A stretch of 64,000 nucleotides of DNA, taken from the NCBI GenBank assembly GCA_937139365.1, contig CAKZPT010000062.1:5422-69421 (forward strand), written 5' to 3'. Source of the DNA: an uncultured bacterium. Lineage in GTDB: Bacteria; Verrucomicrobiota; Kiritimatiellia; PWTM01. Of the stretch, positions 2,112-13,008 are shown in pieces. The stretch's first letter is position 1. Every line of letters starts with the position of its first letter. Position numbers and translations under genes: made by a program. Under the pieces are notes generated by a model, which was not told the origin of the DNA, did no database searches, and saw only the letters and a program-made list of their open reading frames with translations.

Positions 2112-3158
2112 TCAGGGGACCGGCAGCTCGTTGAGAATCCGAGAGATCACCGCGTCGGTGGTGATCTCCTCCGCCTCGGCTTCGTAGGTCAGCAGGATGC
2201 GGTGGCGCAGGACGTCCGGCGCCACGCTTTTCACGTCCTGCGGTGTGACGTATCCGCGCCCCTCCAGAAAGGCGTGGGCGCGCGCCGCAAGGGCCAGGCA
2301 GATCGTCGCCCGGGGGGAGGCCCCGTACCGAACGTACGGGGCGATGTCGAGCCGGAACGCCCTCGGGTCCCGCGTCGCGCCGACCATGTCGAGGATGTAC
2401 TCGCGGATTTTCGGGTCCATGTAGATTTCGTCGACGACACGCCGGGCAGCGAGAATCCGGTCGGGATCGACGACGGGCCGGACGTTGCGCACGATCCGGG
2501 TGCGCGCCTCCGCGTCGAGAATCCGCCGCTCGTCGTCGCGGGCCGGGTATCCGACGCGGACCTTAAGCATAAACCGGTCCACCTGCGCCTCGGGCAGCGG
2601 GTAGGTGCCCTCCTGCTCGATCGGGTTCTGAGTAGCCAACACCAGGAACGGAGACGGCAGGGGATGGGTCTCGCCGCCGATCGTCACCTGCCGCTCCTGC
2701 ATCGCCTCCAACAGCGCGCTCTGAACCTTCGCGGGTGAGCGGTTGATCTCGTCGGCCAGGATCACGTTGGCGAAGATAGGGCCGGTCCGAACCGTGAACG
2801 TTCCGTCGCGGGGGTTGTACACCTGCGTCCCGGTCAGGTCGGCCGGCAACAGGTCGGGGGTGAACTGAATGCGCCGAAACGACGTGTTCAACGCCGCGGC
2901 CAACGTCCGCACCATCAGGGTTTTAGCTAGTCCCGGCACCCCCTCCAGAAGGGCATGCCCGTCGGCCAGCAGGGCGATCAGCAGACGGTCGATCAACCCG
3001 CGCTGCCCAATGACGACCTTTTCGATCTCACCGCGCAGCTCGCCGACAAACGCCGAGTGCTCCCGTACCTGTTCGTTGATCCAGCCAATTCCGCTATTCA
3101 TCCCGTTGCCGCCGTTCCCGCCCGGCCGCGGCGCACCTCCTCGTTCCGCCGCCGCCAC
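2112..3158 (-). CDS. MoxR-family AAA+ ATPase
   Basis: LLEGVPGLAKT (Walker A), ILADEINRSPAKVQSALLEAMQERQVTI (Walker B/sensor) and VLATQNPIEQEGTYPLPEAQVDRF are present. The start may instead be the internal ATG at 3101 (MNSGIGW...). Confidence 0.9.
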   Translation of the reverse strand: MAAAERGGAPRPGGNGGNGMNSGIGWINEQVREHSAFVGELRGEIEKVVIGQRGLIDRLLIALLADGHALLEGVPGLAKTLMVRTLAAALNTSFRRIQFTPDLLPADLTGTQVYNPRDGTFTVRTGPIFANVILADEINRSPAKVQSALLEAMQERQVTIGGETHPLPSPFLVLATQNPIEQEGTYPLPEAQVDRFMLKVRVGYPARDDERRILDAEARTRIVRNVRPVVDPDRILAARRVVDEIYMDPKIREYILDMVGATRDPRAFRLDIAPYVRYGASPRATICLALAARAHAFLEGRGYVTPQDVKSVAPDVLRHRILLTYEAEAEEITTDAVISRILNELPVP

Positions 3159-3235
3159 CCCGGGCTTGCGAGCGTTCCACCAGCCGCCGCCCGTGGGCCG
3201 GATGACGACTTCGCCGCTGATTTGGACTTCGATCT

Positions 3236-3345
3236 CTTGACAACGTTCAGAGACAGTCTAACGCTTTTTTGCAAAAAGCTCCAGATATATTTTATAACTA
3301 CCTCTATATCAATGCCTTATAAAATAACTTCTTCTTGCCTTTCTC
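3236..3345. promoter_or_regulatory. AT-rich intergenic tract (likely promoter region of the moxR operon; possible island boundary)
   Basis: A sequence such as tatattttataactacctctatatcaatgccttataaaataacttcttc stands out in a roughly 70% GC background. It lies immediately 5' of moxR on the minus strand. Confidence 0.35.
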
Positions 3346-3441
3346 GCATTACTCCTTCACTGTTCGTCGAAAAAGTGGGCTCGCCCTCCTGCGCGAAGAA
3401 GTCGGCACCTTAACCCTATTCACGGCGCGGTTCGACACCCA

Positions 3442-4238
3442 TCAGGTGCCGCACGAAAAAGTCCGCCCGCCGCCGCGGCCGTACTCGCTCTCGCCCGCGC
3501 CGTGGCCTTCGCTAGGAAACACGATGAGCTCGAAGTCCTCATCGGCGTGGATCGGCGCGTCGACCACCTGCATCGTCGACGCCGGATCCACGTTGCGATC
3601 ATCCATCGCGCCGACCGTGAGCAGGAGTGCTCTGCGAAGGCGGTGGGCGTGGGTCACGTTGGACCGCTCGGCGTAGTGCGGCCCGACCGGCCAGGCCATC
3701 CACTGCTCGTTCGACCAGATCTTGTCCATCCGGTTGTCATGGCAGCCACAATCGCGGCCGCCTTGTAGAAATCGCCGTGCCACAGCAGCGCGGCCAGCGC
3801 GCTCTGCCCGCCGGCGGAGCCCCCGTAGATGCCCACGCGTTCAAGGTCCATCCACGGTCGGCCGGCGGGCGACGCCCGCAGCCATGCGATCCGGTCGGGC
3901 AGTCCCGCATCCGCGAGGTTCTTCCAGCACACGTCGCGAAAGGCCTTGGAGCGGTGCGAGGTGCCCATGCCGTCGATCCGCACCACCACGAAGCCCAGTT
4001 CCGCGAGTTCGCGGTCGTGCGAATGGACGGCCCACTCCTTTGGCACGAACGCGCCATAGGGACTGGCATAGATGTGTTCGACCACGGGGTAACGGCGGGT
4101 GGAGTCAAAGTTTGTGGGCACGATCAGGATGCCATGGATGTCCGTGGTTCCGTCGCGCCCCTTGGCGACGAACCGCTCGGGCGGGCGCCATCCGGTCGTC
4201 AGCAGCGCGGCCGTGTCGGCACGTTCGAGAACGCACAC
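3442..4238 (-). pseudogene. S9-family serine peptidase (DPP-IV/prolyl-oligopeptidase-like) catalytic domain: N-terminally truncated and frameshifted
   Basis: Two minus-strand ORFs in different frames (3654..4238 and 3442..3783) together give ...[31 protein letters not shown] / [26 protein letters not shown]...[35 protein letters not shown]. That is the Ser-Asp-His region of an S9 peptidase. The frame breaks near 3780. The roughly 400-aa beta-propeller N-terminus is absent. Confidence 0.7.
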
Positions 4239-4262
4239 CAGGGCCCCGTCCTTCCCCTGTTT

Positions 4263-4288
4263 GGGGTCACGTCTCCAGATTCAAATAT
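4263..4288. repeat. 26-bp repeat copy A (inverted relative to copies B and C): GGGGTCACGTCTCCAGATTCAAATAT
   Basis: Its reverse complement ATATTTGAATCTGGAGACGTGACCCC matches copy B at 22 of 26 positions. Confidence 0.6.
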
Positions 4289-4811
4289 CTCAGAACCTCT
4301 CGCAACGCCGAGCGGGCTTCGAGGCGCGGAAGCCAGCGGTGTCGAAAGTGGCGCACCGCCTCGCTCACCGCGGAGTAGTCCATCCCGCCGACCGCATCTC
4401 CGAGTGCGCGGAGGGTCAGGCCGCAATGACGGCGCCCCGCCCATAGCGCGAGGTCCCGCCCTCAATCTCCGTACCGGTCGCGACCCCCCCAGGGCTCCCC
4501 CTTGACTCGCTCCACCCCGCACGGACCACGTCCGGCCAGCTCGCCTCTGCGCGCAGCGATCGCCGCCCCGCGGTTTCCCGCCCGATATGCATGCCCCCTC
4601 GCAGGGCGTCCGCAAACGCCTCGCCCCCCAGCGCCGCGCCCCAGCGAAGCCGTGTCCAGACCGGCTCCGGCGTCCCCTGCCTCAGCCGGTCTTCCGGTAA
4701 ATGCGCTGGCGGCTATGACCGCGCGCCGTGAGGTGATACCGCCCGCCGGCCACGTTCACGCGTAAGGGTCGTGCCACGTCCACCCTTTCTCACACAGCGC
4801 CCCGACGGTCA

Positions 4812-4837
4812 ATGTTTGATTCCGGAGACGTGACCCC
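4812..4837. repeat. 26-bp repeat copy B: ATGTTTGATTCCGGAGACGTGACCCC (followed by tandem CCCCAATCAC x2)
   Basis: Direct copy of repeat C and inverted copy of repeat A. The shared core is GGAGACGTGACCC. Confidence 0.6.
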
Positions 4838-5140
4838 AATCACCCCCAATCACTTCATGGCCGTAAAGACCTTCAGCGAGAGGCGAGGTGGGAGGAGGTC
4901 GTGAAGGCGGTTGAGCGTGTAAAAGGCGAGCGTTGGGAGCAGTTTGCGGATCGGTAGGGCGATTGGGGCTGGGACTTGGTCCTGTGGATTGCACGCGGGC
5001 CCGGGGGGATGACATTGAGTGAACTCAGAGAGAGGGCCGGTGGTTTGGATTACTCGGCCGTCAGCGAGTCTCTGCGCCGATTCGATCGAAAGATGATTCG
5101 TCATCGGCAGAGCCGCTCCGCCGTGAAGAATACCCTGCAA

Positions 5141-5164
5141 ATGTTGAATATGGAGACGTGACCC
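5141..5164. repeat. 24-bp repeat copy C: ATGTTGAATATGGAGACGTGACCC
   Basis: Third copy, 329 bp to the right of copy B in the same orientation. It overlaps the stop of a small HTH-like ORF at 4976..5161. Confidence 0.55.
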
Positions 5165-5498
5165 ACGACCGCCCATGACCGCATGAGTGGCGCGTCAGGC
5201 CTCCACCAGCAGGTGGGCCGTGCCGCCGCCTGAACCGAGCCGGCTGCCGGCCAGGTCGCAGGCGGCAAACCACGGCGGACACGGACGCTGTTCGAGCCGC
5301 CCGAATTCCGCTGCCATCCGCGGGGGCAGCGACAGTAGATATTGGCAACACAGTTCGGTCATGATTCGGCTTCAGAGAGCTTTTGCGGAATCTCGCGAGC
5401 GGCAAGGAAAAACCGGCCATCGCCCGTCACGCCGTCAGGCGAAATGTTGCAGCGGAGACTGCCGCGCGCGTCGAAATTGTGCCGGCGCGCCATTCCGC

Positions 5499-7826
5499 TC
5501 ACCGCACCCGGATCGCCAGCGAGCCACTGCCGGGGTACTCAAATGGCCCGGCGGTGGGACGCGTCCGATTGCGGCGTTTGCCCAGGTAATCGGTGTCAAT
5601 CTGGAGCGGCATGCCATCGCGGTTCACATACGGAAGCTTGGGGATTTTTGCTTCGCCCAGCAAAGTCGTGGTCACGAATGGGGTCTCCGCTGTGTGGAGG
5701 CGCTCGTCCAATTTCAAGTGGAGGATCATCCGGTCCTGCTCGGCAACGAGCCGCACCGCGGGATTGTCATTGGTCAGGATGAGCGGCCGCGTTTCGTTGG
5801 CGCAAGGCAGCGCGCCCCAATAATAGACGTTGCCGCCGGCCAGCACCGGAAATTCGCGGCCATCATAGCCCCACAACCCGTAACTGCTGATCCAGCGCAG
5901 CTCCTTTAAGTCACCTTTCTGTTCCGCAGTGGGGACTTCGCCGTTGCCAATAAAAATGTTGTTGAAAAACCGGTTGTCCCCGCCGCGGATGACGGCCAAC
6001 CCGGCCACCGTGGTGGAATGGGCCGAATGGTAAGGCGTCTCGCGACTGGGGTCGGGGCGGTTGGTGATCTTGCCGGCGAACAAATTGTGGGCGTAGGCGC
6101 CGCCTTGCGACATGTCCTGCACGCTGGTCGGGGACAGGAAGATATTGTTGTCCACGACAAACGGGCCGTGATTCACCTCGACGAGCAGGTCCGGCCCGAC
6201 GTTGTCGTGGCACAGGTTTCGCGAGACGCGCGTGCCCTGCGTCATCCAATCCAGCCACAAGCCCATGTTGGCGCGGTAGATGTGGTTATTGCAGATCACG
6301 GTGTTTATCGCGCCGTGGAATTTGATGCCGGCCATCTCCGCGCCGGTGAACAGACGGCGCACGTGGATGTCGTGGATGACGTTGTTCTCGACGATGCAGA
6401 AGATCGGACCCAGACTGCCGACGATGCCCGCCTGTTCGCAGTGCGAGATGGTGTTGTTGCGGACGATGTGATGGCCGATGTGCTCAGACGTCCAAGGGAT
6501 GCGAAATGCGTGAGCGCGCTCGATGGTCTTGACGTAGCCCTCGGCGGTGTCGCCGGAGGTGTTGTCATACTCGTCGCCATGTTTGCCCAGCGTGATGCCC
6601 GTGCACATCGAGTGGCTGATGACGTTGTTCTCAATGATCCAGCCCTTGCTCCAATGCGTGCCCAGCAAACCGATCTGCTCGGCCGTCGGCGGCGCCCAGG
6701 GCGTGGCCGCGTGCCGCATCGTGAATCCCCGCACGGTGATGTAGTTGCGGCCCGGTTGGCTGGGATAGAACACGCTTTGGCGAACGTTGATTTCGACGAG
6801 TTGTTCGTTGGGATTCACGCCCTCGAACTGCGCCCAGATTGTGGTGTTCGAGCCGTCAACTTGGGCAAACCACAACTGCGGATTCAGGGCACCGACATGC
6901 GCCTTGCGGAAGATGAGATACAACGTCTTTACGCCGTTGACGGGTTTGAGCCGGGCCGGCAACGTCGTCCAAGATTGCCAGCCGCCCGTGTTCGGCACCA
7001 TGCAGGTGCCAAGCAACTCGCCGTCCGGCGCGTCCAAGCGCAGTTCAATGATGCCGCCTTGCGAGGCCGATGCGGCGCGAATTTCCATCTGCTCGGTGCG
7101 AGGGCCGAAGTCAAATCGGTCGTAGCGCACCCAGTCGCCATGCACAATGTACCCGACGCACTCGCCGCCTTCCGAGCAAGGCGCGTTTTGCGTGCCGCGT
7201 TTTTCAGCAAAATCCGTCGCCGGCACGCGCGGCCGGTTTTCTGTTTCCTTGCCCGCCCGCAACCAGGCAACGTTCAGCAGATAACCCTGAGGACCAACCC
7301 TCAGCCAGGCGGGCTTTGCGCCGCCGGCCAACAGCACCTCGTCGAGGCTGGCCGCCTCCGTGAGCCAGTCACCGTCGAGGTAGACCGCGCCGGTGTGATG
7401 TTTGCGTCCCCTGCCGTCGAACCAGTCGCCGTGGATGACGTTGGTATAGGGATTGAAATCGCCAAAGAACGCGTTGGGCAGTGTCACCTTCCAAACGTCG
7501 TCCTGGACCTTCTCCCAGCCTTTGACCACTTCCGAGCCTTTGATTTCAACCCGCGCGCCGGGCGCGGCCTGATATACGATGCGTTGTTTGTCCGACGTGC
7601 CCCCGCGCGGCGGGTCGATCCGCTCGCGATACACCCCCTCATGCACCGTGATTACATCGCCCGGTTGGGCCAGGTCGGCGGCGCGTTGGATGGTACGCAG
7701 CGGGGCCTCGGGGGTGCCGGGATTGGAATCTTTGCCGGTGATGGCAACGTGCAATTCTGCGGCCGACAGCGTCGCGTGCGCCACGAGCAGCCCGCCGAGG
7801 GACAGTCGATGAATGCATAGCTTCAT
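5499..7826 (-). CDS. Secreted right-handed parallel beta-helix (pectin-lyase fold) protein with an inserted CBM6-like domain; putative polysaccharide lyase or glycosidase
   Basis: ORF 5499..8366, trimmed to the ATG at 7826 (MKLCIHRLSLGGLLVAHATLSA, a signal peptide). The N-terminus AAELHVAITGKDSNPGTPEAPLRTIQRAADLAQPGDVITVHEGVY is typical of beta-helix enzymes. The CBM6-like insert reads GDWVRYDRFDFG...IELRLDAPDGELLGTCMVPNTGGWQSWTT. Repeated NNVISH, NNTISH, NNVIHD, CNNHIY and DNNIF beta-helix rungs follow. The N-terminal 180 codons of the track ORF are antisense to the DUF59 fragment and were rejected. Confidence 0.8.
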   Translation of the reverse strand: MKLCIHRLSLGGLLVAHATLSAAELHVAITGKDSNPGTPEAPLRTIQRAADLAQPGDVITVHEGVYRERIDPPRGGTSDKQRIVYQAAPGARVEIKGSEVVKGWEKVQDDVWKVTLPNAFFGDFNPYTNVIHGDWFDGRGRKHHTGAVYLDGDWLTEAASLDEVLLAGGAKPAWLRVGPQGYLLNVAWLRAGKETENRPRVPATDFAEKRGTQNAPCSEGGECVGYIVHGDWVRYDRFDFGPRTEQMEIRAASASQGGIIELRLDAPDGELLGTCMVPNTGGWQSWTTLPARLKPVNGVKTLYLIFRKAHVGALNPQLWFAQVDGSNTTIWAQFEGVNPNEQLVEINVRQSVFYPSQPGRNYITVRGFTMRHAATPWAPPTAEQIGLLGTHWSKGWIIENNVISHSMCTGITLGKHGDEYDNTSGDTAEGYVKTIERAHAFRIPWTSEHIGHHIVRNNTISHCEQAGIVGSLGPIFCIVENNVIHDIHVRRLFTGAEMAGIKFHGAINTVICNNHIYRANMGLWLDWMTQGTRVSRNLCHDNVGPDLLVEVNHGPFVVDNNIFLSPTSVQDMSQGGAYAHNLFAGKITNRPDPSRETPYHSAHSTTVAGLAVIRGGDNRFFNNIFIGNGEVPTAEQKGDLKELRWISSYGLWGYDGREFPVLAGGNVYYWGALPCANETRPLILTNDNPAVRLVAEQDRMILHLKLDERLHTAETPFVTTTLLGEAKIPKLPYVNRDGMPLQIDTDYLGKRRNRTRPTAGPFEYPGSGSLAIRVR

Positions 7827-7943
7827 ATCGCGGGAGAGTACGGTCGTTGACGCCCAATTGGAAGTTCGGCGGACCGTCGCCGGCCAATGTTTTACTGCAC
7901 CGCAATATGAACGGCAATTCTGGTCCGCGACGTCGAGGCCTCC

Positions 7944-8261
7944 GTGGTGCCGGTCGACACCAAGGTTACGCTCATGAAAGGCGAAGCCGCTTACATCACG
8001 CAATCGCCGGGCGGCAGCTACACCGTCATCGTCAACGGCATCATGTTTCGCATTGCGGAACAGGACGCCAACGCGCCGGGCCTGGAGGTCGCGCCCAAGC
8101 CCGTTTCTGCGGCGTCCAGTGGCCCGGTGACACAGGAGCAATTGGACAAGCAGGTCTGGGACTCGCTCAAAACCTGTGACGACCCGGAGATCCCTGTGAA
8201 CATCGTGGACCTCGGGTTGATTTACGATTGTCATCTTACGCTCCTTGGCGAAAACTCCTGA
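7944..8261 (+). pseudogene. Truncated DUF59 (MIP18/SufT-like Fe-S assembly) domain fragment with an unrelated N-terminal segment
   Basis: ...VTQEQLDKQVWDSLKTCDDPEIPVNIVDLGLIYDCHL matches the first third of a DUF59 domain and then stops. No continuation in other frames. The segment is lower in GC. Confidence 0.4.
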
Positions 8262-8437
8262 TAAGAAATCGCTTTTCAGGTCGCGCGGGCCCCCTGCCCG
8301 GGTGAGACCGTCCAGAATCGGCGTTTTCATGGCGGGGGATTTACCAGAGCACCGGATGGAGGCCAAGACCGAAAATCGGTGGGCGAGCGGACAGGATCCA
8401 GGCGCGATCGCGAAACGGACCGATCCCGCCGCGGGGC

Positions 8438-12912: not shown

Positions 12913-13008
12913 GGCGTCCTCAACCCCCCGCCCGGCGGAACATCCGGTCCCGCCCGCCAACGGCCCGCTCGTGCGCGCGCCGCGCGGTCCTTCGAGGCAT
13001 GCGCGGGG

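Follow-up and report, generated by a model that had tools for sequence, protein, structure and literature searches.

The three repeats and the gene remnants around them

The window, by which we mean the whole 64-kb stretch of DNA that was analysed, contains a repeat in three copies, all at one locus: A (4263-4288), B (4812-4837) and C (5141-5164). The sequence-only reading of this DNA had placed them at these positions and all three proved to be real. A core 13-mer, GGAGACGTGACCC, is common to the copies and occurs exactly three times in the window when up to one mismatch is allowed, against a chance expectation of 0.25 per window; none of 100 dinucleotide shuffles reached three. The inverted match between A and B stands, with the earlier count of 22 of 26 positions revised to 23 of 26, and when extended the inverted arms reach 31 nt at 87% (4258-4288 and 4812-4842). 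C is identical to A at 20 of 24 positions and to B at 18 of 24. The tip of A is GGGGTCAC (4263-4270), which recurs in reverse complement at 4830-4837 and places the tip of B at 4837; the tip of C is TGACCC and has three C only (GGGTCAC on the other strand).

The interval between A and B had been described as non-coding. This was refuted by tblastn and by translation, which revealed on the minus strand the pseudogene of a TIRYT, a Y1 HUH transposase with an HTH resembling domain IV of DnaA. Pseudogene 1 occupies 4270-4777 and has a GTG start at 4777. When the 342-aa protein P0006 was used as the tblastn query, positions 4777-4697 corresponded to aa 1-27, 4694-4527 to aa 201-256 and 4515-4270 to aa 260-342. 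The region encoding aa 28-200, which includes the HUH and Tyr motifs, has been deleted at a junction that joins ATTTAC to CGGAAGACC, and there are also frameshifts and an in-frame TGA. The translation begins at the GTG with ARPLRVNVAGGRYHLTARG and ends with GLTLRALGDAVGGMDYSAVSEAVRHF followed by LRYLNLET and a TGA stop inside repeat A. The terminal inverted repeats (TIRs) have both been kept, giving an element, element 1, of 575 bp (4263-4837, minus strand). Its 3' TIR is A (4263-4288, minus strand), recognised from the repeat search and the pseudogene translation, which shares the stop (4267-4269) and the final codons (YLNLET) with the gene. Its 5' TIR is B, which as a TIR spans 4807-4837 on the minus strand, reads GGGGTCACGTCTCCGGAATCAAACATTGACC on the gene strand and has its tip 60 nt from the GTG start. 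As element 1 is frameshifted and its catalytic motifs went with codons 28-200, it cannot transpose by itself.

Repeat C had been regarded as a third copy of one MITE. This view had to be abandoned, as C (5141-5164, plus strand) closes, as 3' TIR, a second element that has lost its 5' part and belongs to another subfamily (49% amino acid identity, lower GC). Here tblastn placed the C-terminal 100 residues (aa 243-342, the HTH domain) at 4859-5158, and the resulting TIRYT gene fragment 2 (4859-5161, plus strand) contains an in-frame TAG at 4955-4957 and a TGA stop at 5159-5161, inside repeat C. Its translation ends with MTLSELRERAGGLDYSAVSESLRRF and then LQMLNMET, so that C overlaps the residues MLNMET and the stop. 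The tails of pseudogene 1 and fragment 2 are homologous (49% identity, E 5e-19). The 61-aa open reading frame with an HTH noted previously at 4976-5161 does exist and is the HTH tail of element 2, and the B-C interval is indeed lower in GC, at 0.58 versus 0.70 for A-B and 0.694 for the window. The remnant of element 2 adjoins the tip of B, with the boundary of homology somewhere within 4838-4859.

No intact TIRYT gene is present in the 64-kb window. Neither further TIRYT copies nor solo TIRs were found there by tblastn with nine family members and a regular expression for the tip, which elsewhere in the window matched GGGGTCA at 13005, 17124 and 55131 only, all chance matches. A second repeat in the window, GGACGCTGTTCGA, occurs five times with unrelated flanks and was rejected as a coding coincidence. 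A consensus scan of 4200-5300 gave no sigma-70 promoter and no terminator. A TTGAC(A) box in the 5' TIR is conserved among relatives and offers a promoter hint only.

On the other side of A lies the remnant of an S9 (DPP-IV-like) serine peptidase gene (3419-4262, minus strand), which was found by tblastn with P0151 (78% identity) and retains the C-terminal catalytic domain only. The alignment comprises aa 148-317 at 4262-3753, aa 319-410 at 3753-3475 and aa 414-429 at 3466-3419, with two frameshifts, near 3753 and 3470. DPP-IV chains in the PDB align to the remnant from about residue 448-480 of about 700-740. The gene is truncated about two thirds of the way along. The suggestion that the element abuts the point where this gene is broken was exact, as the homology extends up to 4262, immediately adjacent to the tip of A. 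The N-terminal part (aa 1-147 of P0151) gave no tblastn match anywhere in the window; the search also covered the 334 nt separating C from the gene that follows.

Assignment to the TIRtron class

A word-index protein search with an 89-aa fragment returned one match only and an exhaustive HMMER search was needed. Run with a profile of the tail, the latter gave 560 relatives, nearly all aligned at their extreme C-terminus, and the full-length proteins among these are 331-348 aa long. The full-length relatives score 38-44 bits (E about 1e-10) against the Pfam model Y1_Tnp, above its cut-off of 23 bits. Against the NCBIfam model REP_Tyr_transpos, relatives score 48-58 bits (E 1e-15), which is below the 80-bit equivalog cut-off, and against transpos_IS200 they score about 15 bits (E 0.01-0.04), far from the cut-off of 55 bits. 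The C-terminal domain, as profile A2, matches DnaA domain IV (PDB 1j1v) with E 3e-5; the corresponding Pfam model, Bac_DnaA_C, matches the family weakly and below its cut-off (E 6e-4 to 0.014). The motifs NHYH, FQGRF, Y[LIV]H[FL]NP and RWSSY are invariant in alignment A2, and they match the motif table for TnpA_REP subclass 2.1 (Quentin et al. 2018, PMC6006769). The full-length relatives thus count as Y1 HUH proteins; both window copies are without the HUH/Tyr motifs. A plasmid collection contained distant relatives only (<40% identity), annotated as 'transposase'.

These proteins belong to a class that has already been described and is little studied, and of which the locus holds two decayed members. 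A RAYT-like gene flanked by TIRs, not by REP hairpins, has been named a TIRYT and the whole unit a TIRtron (Di Nocera, De Gregorio & Rocco 2013, PMC3733652). The same source gives GGGGWSAS (GGGG[AT][CG]A[CG]) as the consensus of the TIR tip, which GGGGTCAC fits exactly, and states that the 3' TIR overlaps the end of the gene. TIRYTs are subclass 2.1 (2.1.2) of TnpA_REP in the scheme of Quentin et al. (PMC6006769) and correspond to RAYT group 1 of Bertels. A TIRtron is roughly 1.0-1.1 kb long and consists of one TIRYT gene between TIRs of 25-30 bp that start with GGGGTCA; in the protein, a Y1 HUH nuclease/transposase domain of RAYT descent at the N-terminus is combined with an HTH at the C-terminus that resembles DnaA domain IV. 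The elements described here are alike in having a gene between TIRs for a RAYT-like Y1 HUH protein with a Bac_DnaA_C-like HTH, in the GGGGWSAS tip, in the 3' TIR lying across the gene end and in the occurrence of TIRs also as solo copies, dimers and clusters. They differ in that the window copies are dead, one being internally deleted and the other 5'-truncated, and in the host, which to judge from relatives appears to be a member of the PVC group (Kiritimatiellia, Verrucomicrobiota or Planctomycetota).

Dispersal of the repeat family, as supposed for a mobile element, was observed in related genomes, the 22-mer TTGAATNTGGAGACGTGACCCC being present at 14 loci in Kiritimatiellia/Verrucomicrobiota MAGs. 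It was also present in one MAG binned as Ignavibacteriales. Related MAGs carry the exact 22-mer on 2-3 contigs each, and for most copies the distance to a contig end is no more than about 200 nt, as is expected of a multicopy repeat that breaks assemblies. Among TIRtrons in general, some but not all have TIRs that form a repeated DNA family of the host genome. Three of the 22-mer loci, L003, L006 and L015, are intact elements in which the 5' TIR is GGGGTCACGTCTCCAGATTCAAGAATTGAC, with its tip 60-61 nt upstream of the ATG, and the 3' TIR spans the codons for ILNLET and the stop. A metagenome scan gave 80 further loci. The metagenome and MAG loci together include about 35 complete elements of 0.9-1.13 kb, in which the 5' TIR precedes the start by about 20-57 nt and the 3' TIR extends 3-12 nt beyond the stop. 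Among the tips of 32 relatives GTCA is invariant and the preceding three G are near-invariant.

Target-site duplications, for which the sequence-only reading had proposed to look, were absent. None is present here, where the element is bordered by CCCCTGTTT on one side and AATCAC on the other, and visual inspection of about 33 intact relatives revealed none either; on both sides of the elements the 3-4 bases adjoining the tips are A/T-rich. This absence fits HUH/Y1 transposition rather than that of DDE-type MITEs. It is also a feature of the IS200/IS605 elements (IS608, ISDra2), which are likewise small and have a single gene for a Y1 HUH transposase. They differ in having no TIRs, their left and right ends carrying different subterminal hairpins, whereas TIRs are present here.

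Taking these results together, we consider it probable, at about 0.85, that 4263-5164 is the wreckage of two TIRtrons and that the three repeats are their TIRs. An insertion had been thought to have truncated the neighbouring peptidase gene. The position of the element at the break supports this, but insertion alone does not account for the truncation as the N-terminal part is missing from the window, which indicates a deletion or rearrangement after the insertion. Element 1 has the peptidase remnant on one side and the middle of element 2 on the other. One of the elements may have landed in the peptidase gene and the other in or beside it, after which at least one deletion next to the elements would have removed the 5' part of element 2 together with the N-terminal part of the peptidase gene. 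A possible route for such a deletion would be recombination between TIRs of the same orientation: on the plus strand, repeat A would have read in the same direction as the 5' TIR of element 2.

Alternative accounts of the repeats

The repeats had been described as MITE-like terminal inverted repeats. They are the TIRs of a mobile element, as this description implied; the MITE label itself is not proven. The A-B unit has the anatomy of a nascent MITE, with 575 bp, both TIRs and no working gene, and resembles the MITEs derived from DDE insertion sequences in being short, TIR-bounded, without a working transposase and the product of internal deletion. It differs from them in the lack of a target-site duplication, in having a HUH rather than a DDE parent and in its still recognisable coding remnants. 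One could go further and suppose that A-B is a working MITE-like deletion derivative that an intact TIRYT at another site in the genome still mobilises in trans and that reached the peptidase gene already deleted. This is compatible with the two-TIRtron reading, to which it adds current or recent mobility. Both TIRs are intact (23/26), and when the A-B unit was folded as single-stranded DNA, A paired with B. Short TIR-bounded units and TIR dimers do occur in the family, locus L048 carrying a perfect TIR-loop-TIR hairpin (370-414). There is also a related copy in a metagenome contig, L096, with about 88% nucleotide identity (estimated from the alignment) in a different genomic context, adjoining MvaI/BcnI-type restriction-modification genes, and the right end of its internal deletion agrees with that of the window copy to within 3 nt. 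However, L096 shares no other lesion with the window copy, the left ends of the two deletions differ (L096 keeps aa 28-84) and the 5' TIR of L096 is degenerate, while a deletion hot spot would account equally well for the common right end. The shared end could therefore reflect either descent from a deleted, mobilised ancestor or such a hot spot. Furthermore, the 64-kb window contains a single unit of this kind, and a search with the frameshifted product P0002 as query found 8 proteins only and did not uncover a swarm of identical derivatives. On balance, mobility of the deleted unit in trans appears rather unlikely.

Canonical REP or REPIN sequences served by a RAYT, that is, palindromic hairpins with a GTAG or CGTC tag, would be another way to place inverted repeats around such a gene. 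In its protein the element comes closest to the REP-associated tyrosine transposases, and inverted repeats flank the gene in REPtrons too (PMC3733652). REPtrons (RAYT/TnpA_REP, e.g. E. coli YafM, with REP/REPIN) share with the present elements the HUH, Y---NP protein lineage, a single gene between inverted repeat units that are also found dispersed, and a presumed action on single-stranded DNA. The repeats themselves are of a different kind. REPs are palindromic hairpins of 20-40 nt with a GTAG tag, whereas the single TIRs A, B and C are not palindromic, and folding of both strands as DNA gave no significant hairpin for any of them relative to shuffles (z -1.3 to +1.0). Since they fold no better than shuffles they do not qualify as REP hairpins. 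The GTAG and CGTC tags are absent, their place being taken by the GGGGTCA of the tip, the TIRYT has an additional HTH domain, and the NCBIfam score of 56 bits falls short of the equivalog cut-off. In addition, the genes of subclass 2.1 are described as being without REP-like structures (PMC6006769). A REP/REPIN system at this locus is thus very improbable.

The repeats might also be a coding by-product, in which gene tails sharing an LNxET peptide were duplicated locally and have no function as DNA. It is true that A encodes YLNLET and C MLNMET, each followed by the stop, and that the C-terminal ending LN[LMIV]ET is widespread across the protein family. Copy B is difficult to explain in this way as it is inverted and upstream of a gene start, with no HTH coding sequence running into it, and in L003, L006 and L015 the inverted copy likewise precedes the ATG by 60-61 nt. 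Many copies of the motif in MAGs have no open reading frame leading into them. In other subfamilies, moreover, a different TIR goes with a different C-terminal peptide (LNLET, NVET or HVKT before the stop), indicating that the peptide is dictated by the DNA element and not the reverse. Copy B and the solo copies already contradict the by-product account, which we regard as highly unlikely. A structured RNA gene or cis-regulatory RNA as the source of all three copies, for which only sequence conservation speaks, can be dismissed: a check set beforehand gave no Rfam match with E<=1 on either strand of 2900-5700, the whole window has at gathering thresholds three tRNAs only, all elsewhere, and the copies sit in coding remnants on opposite strands.

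Transposition, duplications at the tips and significance of the locus

The element anatomy, the family and domains of the protein, the absence of target-site duplications and the pairing of the TIRs in the single-stranded DNA fold allow a transposition route to be proposed for active TIRtrons. Its steps are taken by analogy from RAYT and IS608, where they are established. In active copies the two TIRs would pair in single-stranded DNA to form a panhandle or hairpin with GGGGTCA/TGACCCC at its base. The DnaA-IV-like HTH would help to bind the paired TIRs, and the HUH/Tyr domain would nick and rejoin single strands at the TIR tips. Such strand transfer would leave no target-site duplication, as in RAYT and the IS200/IS605 relatives. 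The window copies, lacking the catalytic region, are to judge from their sequence inert on their own.

A tandem CCCCAATCAC x2 had been noted after copy B and was confirmed at 4834-4853 (plus strand). The duplicated unit is 10 nt long (d=10), 6 nt being flank (f=6) and 4 nt the GGGG with which the TIR tip begins (j=4). Tandem copies of flank plus tip of this sort, for which we use the term stutter, precede 21 of 120 TIRtron tips (17.5%) among the collected loci, compared with 16 of 2674 other GGGG sites (0.6%) and 0.5% of random positions. The low figure at control GGGG sites led us to reject slippage on the G-run as the sole cause. In 7-9 cases, depending on the scan, the copied unit stops after GGGG (position 4) and in 8-11 after GGGGTCA (position 7); it rarely extends deeper. 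The arrays contain up to five units (L001, L042) of 10-17 nt. As the units are shorter than assembler k-mers and the assemblies are independent, an assembly artefact is unlikely.

The stutter may be a new observation, the available text of PMC3733652 and PMC6006769 containing no description of it. It may mark positions of nicking, or it may be due to replication slippage specific to the tip. If it were made by the transposase, a nick followed by extension of the 3'-OH and faulty re-joining would give copies of flank plus tip. It is conceivable, though we would not expect it, that CCCCAATCAC x2 is one case of a family-wide signature left by the transposase, in which stutters mark nicking sites inside the TIR and a replicative step resembling rolling-circle replication. 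Tandem or partial duplications of ends occur in IS91/ISCR elements and Helitrons, where they are attributed to missed or repeated termination. These resemble the stutter arrays; however, IS91/ISCR and Helitrons use Y2 or Rep-helicase proteins, have no TIRs, are much larger and show no sequence relationship to the present elements.

For this genome the locus is ordinary wreckage and its importance is small: a truncated, frameshifted peptidase gene and two dead transposon copies are explained, and the region should be annotated as pseudogenes and mobile-element remnants, not as a 61-aa HTH gene. For the family, the locus illustrates clearly how a TIRtron is laid out in bacteria of the PVC group, with 60 nt from tip to start and the stop within the 3' TIR, and the survey shows this layout to be conserved across many diverged relatives. 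The survey also shows that short copies of flank plus tip are concentrated at the TIR tips, which provides a cheap, testable prediction of the site at which the HUH enzyme cuts.

The peptidase remnant and its flanks

The remnant of an S9/DPP-IV-like peptidase gene at 3419-4262, which adjoins a decayed TIRtron (a mobile element with a single TIRYT transposase gene between terminal inverted repeats, TIRs), is truncated at its 5' end and also carries two frameshifts, near 3753 and 3470. It is therefore a pseudogene, and became one either beforehand or since. A search for the N-terminal remnant of the S9 gene in the 334-nt stretch at 5165-5498, which runs from repeat C to the stop codon of the gene for a 955-aa beta-helix protein (5499-8366, minus strand), showed that it was absent, and recognisable homology was not found in this stretch. 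An AT-rich island lies at 3240-3400, where the S9 pseudogene ends on one side and a MoxR-like AAA ATPase gene on the minus strand (2112-3158) starts on the other; its GC is about 0.51 in 300-nt windows, and locally lower, in a genome of 69% GC.

The 13-mer GGACGCTGTTCGA occurs five times in the window, at 5283, 20240, 39083, 44919 and 50056, versus 0.17 copies expected. The flanks of the five copies are unrelated. The 13-mer was rejected as a repeat family, and its recurrence is a coding coincidence (G-T-L-F-D codons).

Duplications just outside the tips

Tandem 'stutter' copies were observed just outside TIRtron tips, the unit being the flank plus the first 4 (GGGG) or 7 (GGGGTCA) nucleotides of the TIR. 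They are present at 17.5% of TIRtron tips versus 0.6% of control GGGG sites, and the longest arrays reach five units. One lies at 4834-4853 in the window, and others were found at the related loci L001, L006, L011, L012, L015, L022, L033, L042, L045, L052, L055, L068, L078, L081, L084, L088 and L093.

A deletion derivative and a TIR dimer

A deletion derivative related to the window copy at 4263-4837 was found at 60-900 of locus L096, in a different genomic context where MvaI/BcnI-type restriction-modification genes adjoin it. The right ends of the internal deletions agree to within 3 nt and all other lesions differ between the two copies. At locus L048, a perfect TIR/loop/TIR hairpin (370-414) with 17-bp arms, GGGGTCAGGTCTGTCGT...ACGACAGACCTGACCCC, and a 13-nt loop lies upstream of a TIRYT gene; this hairpin is a REPIN-like TIR dimer.
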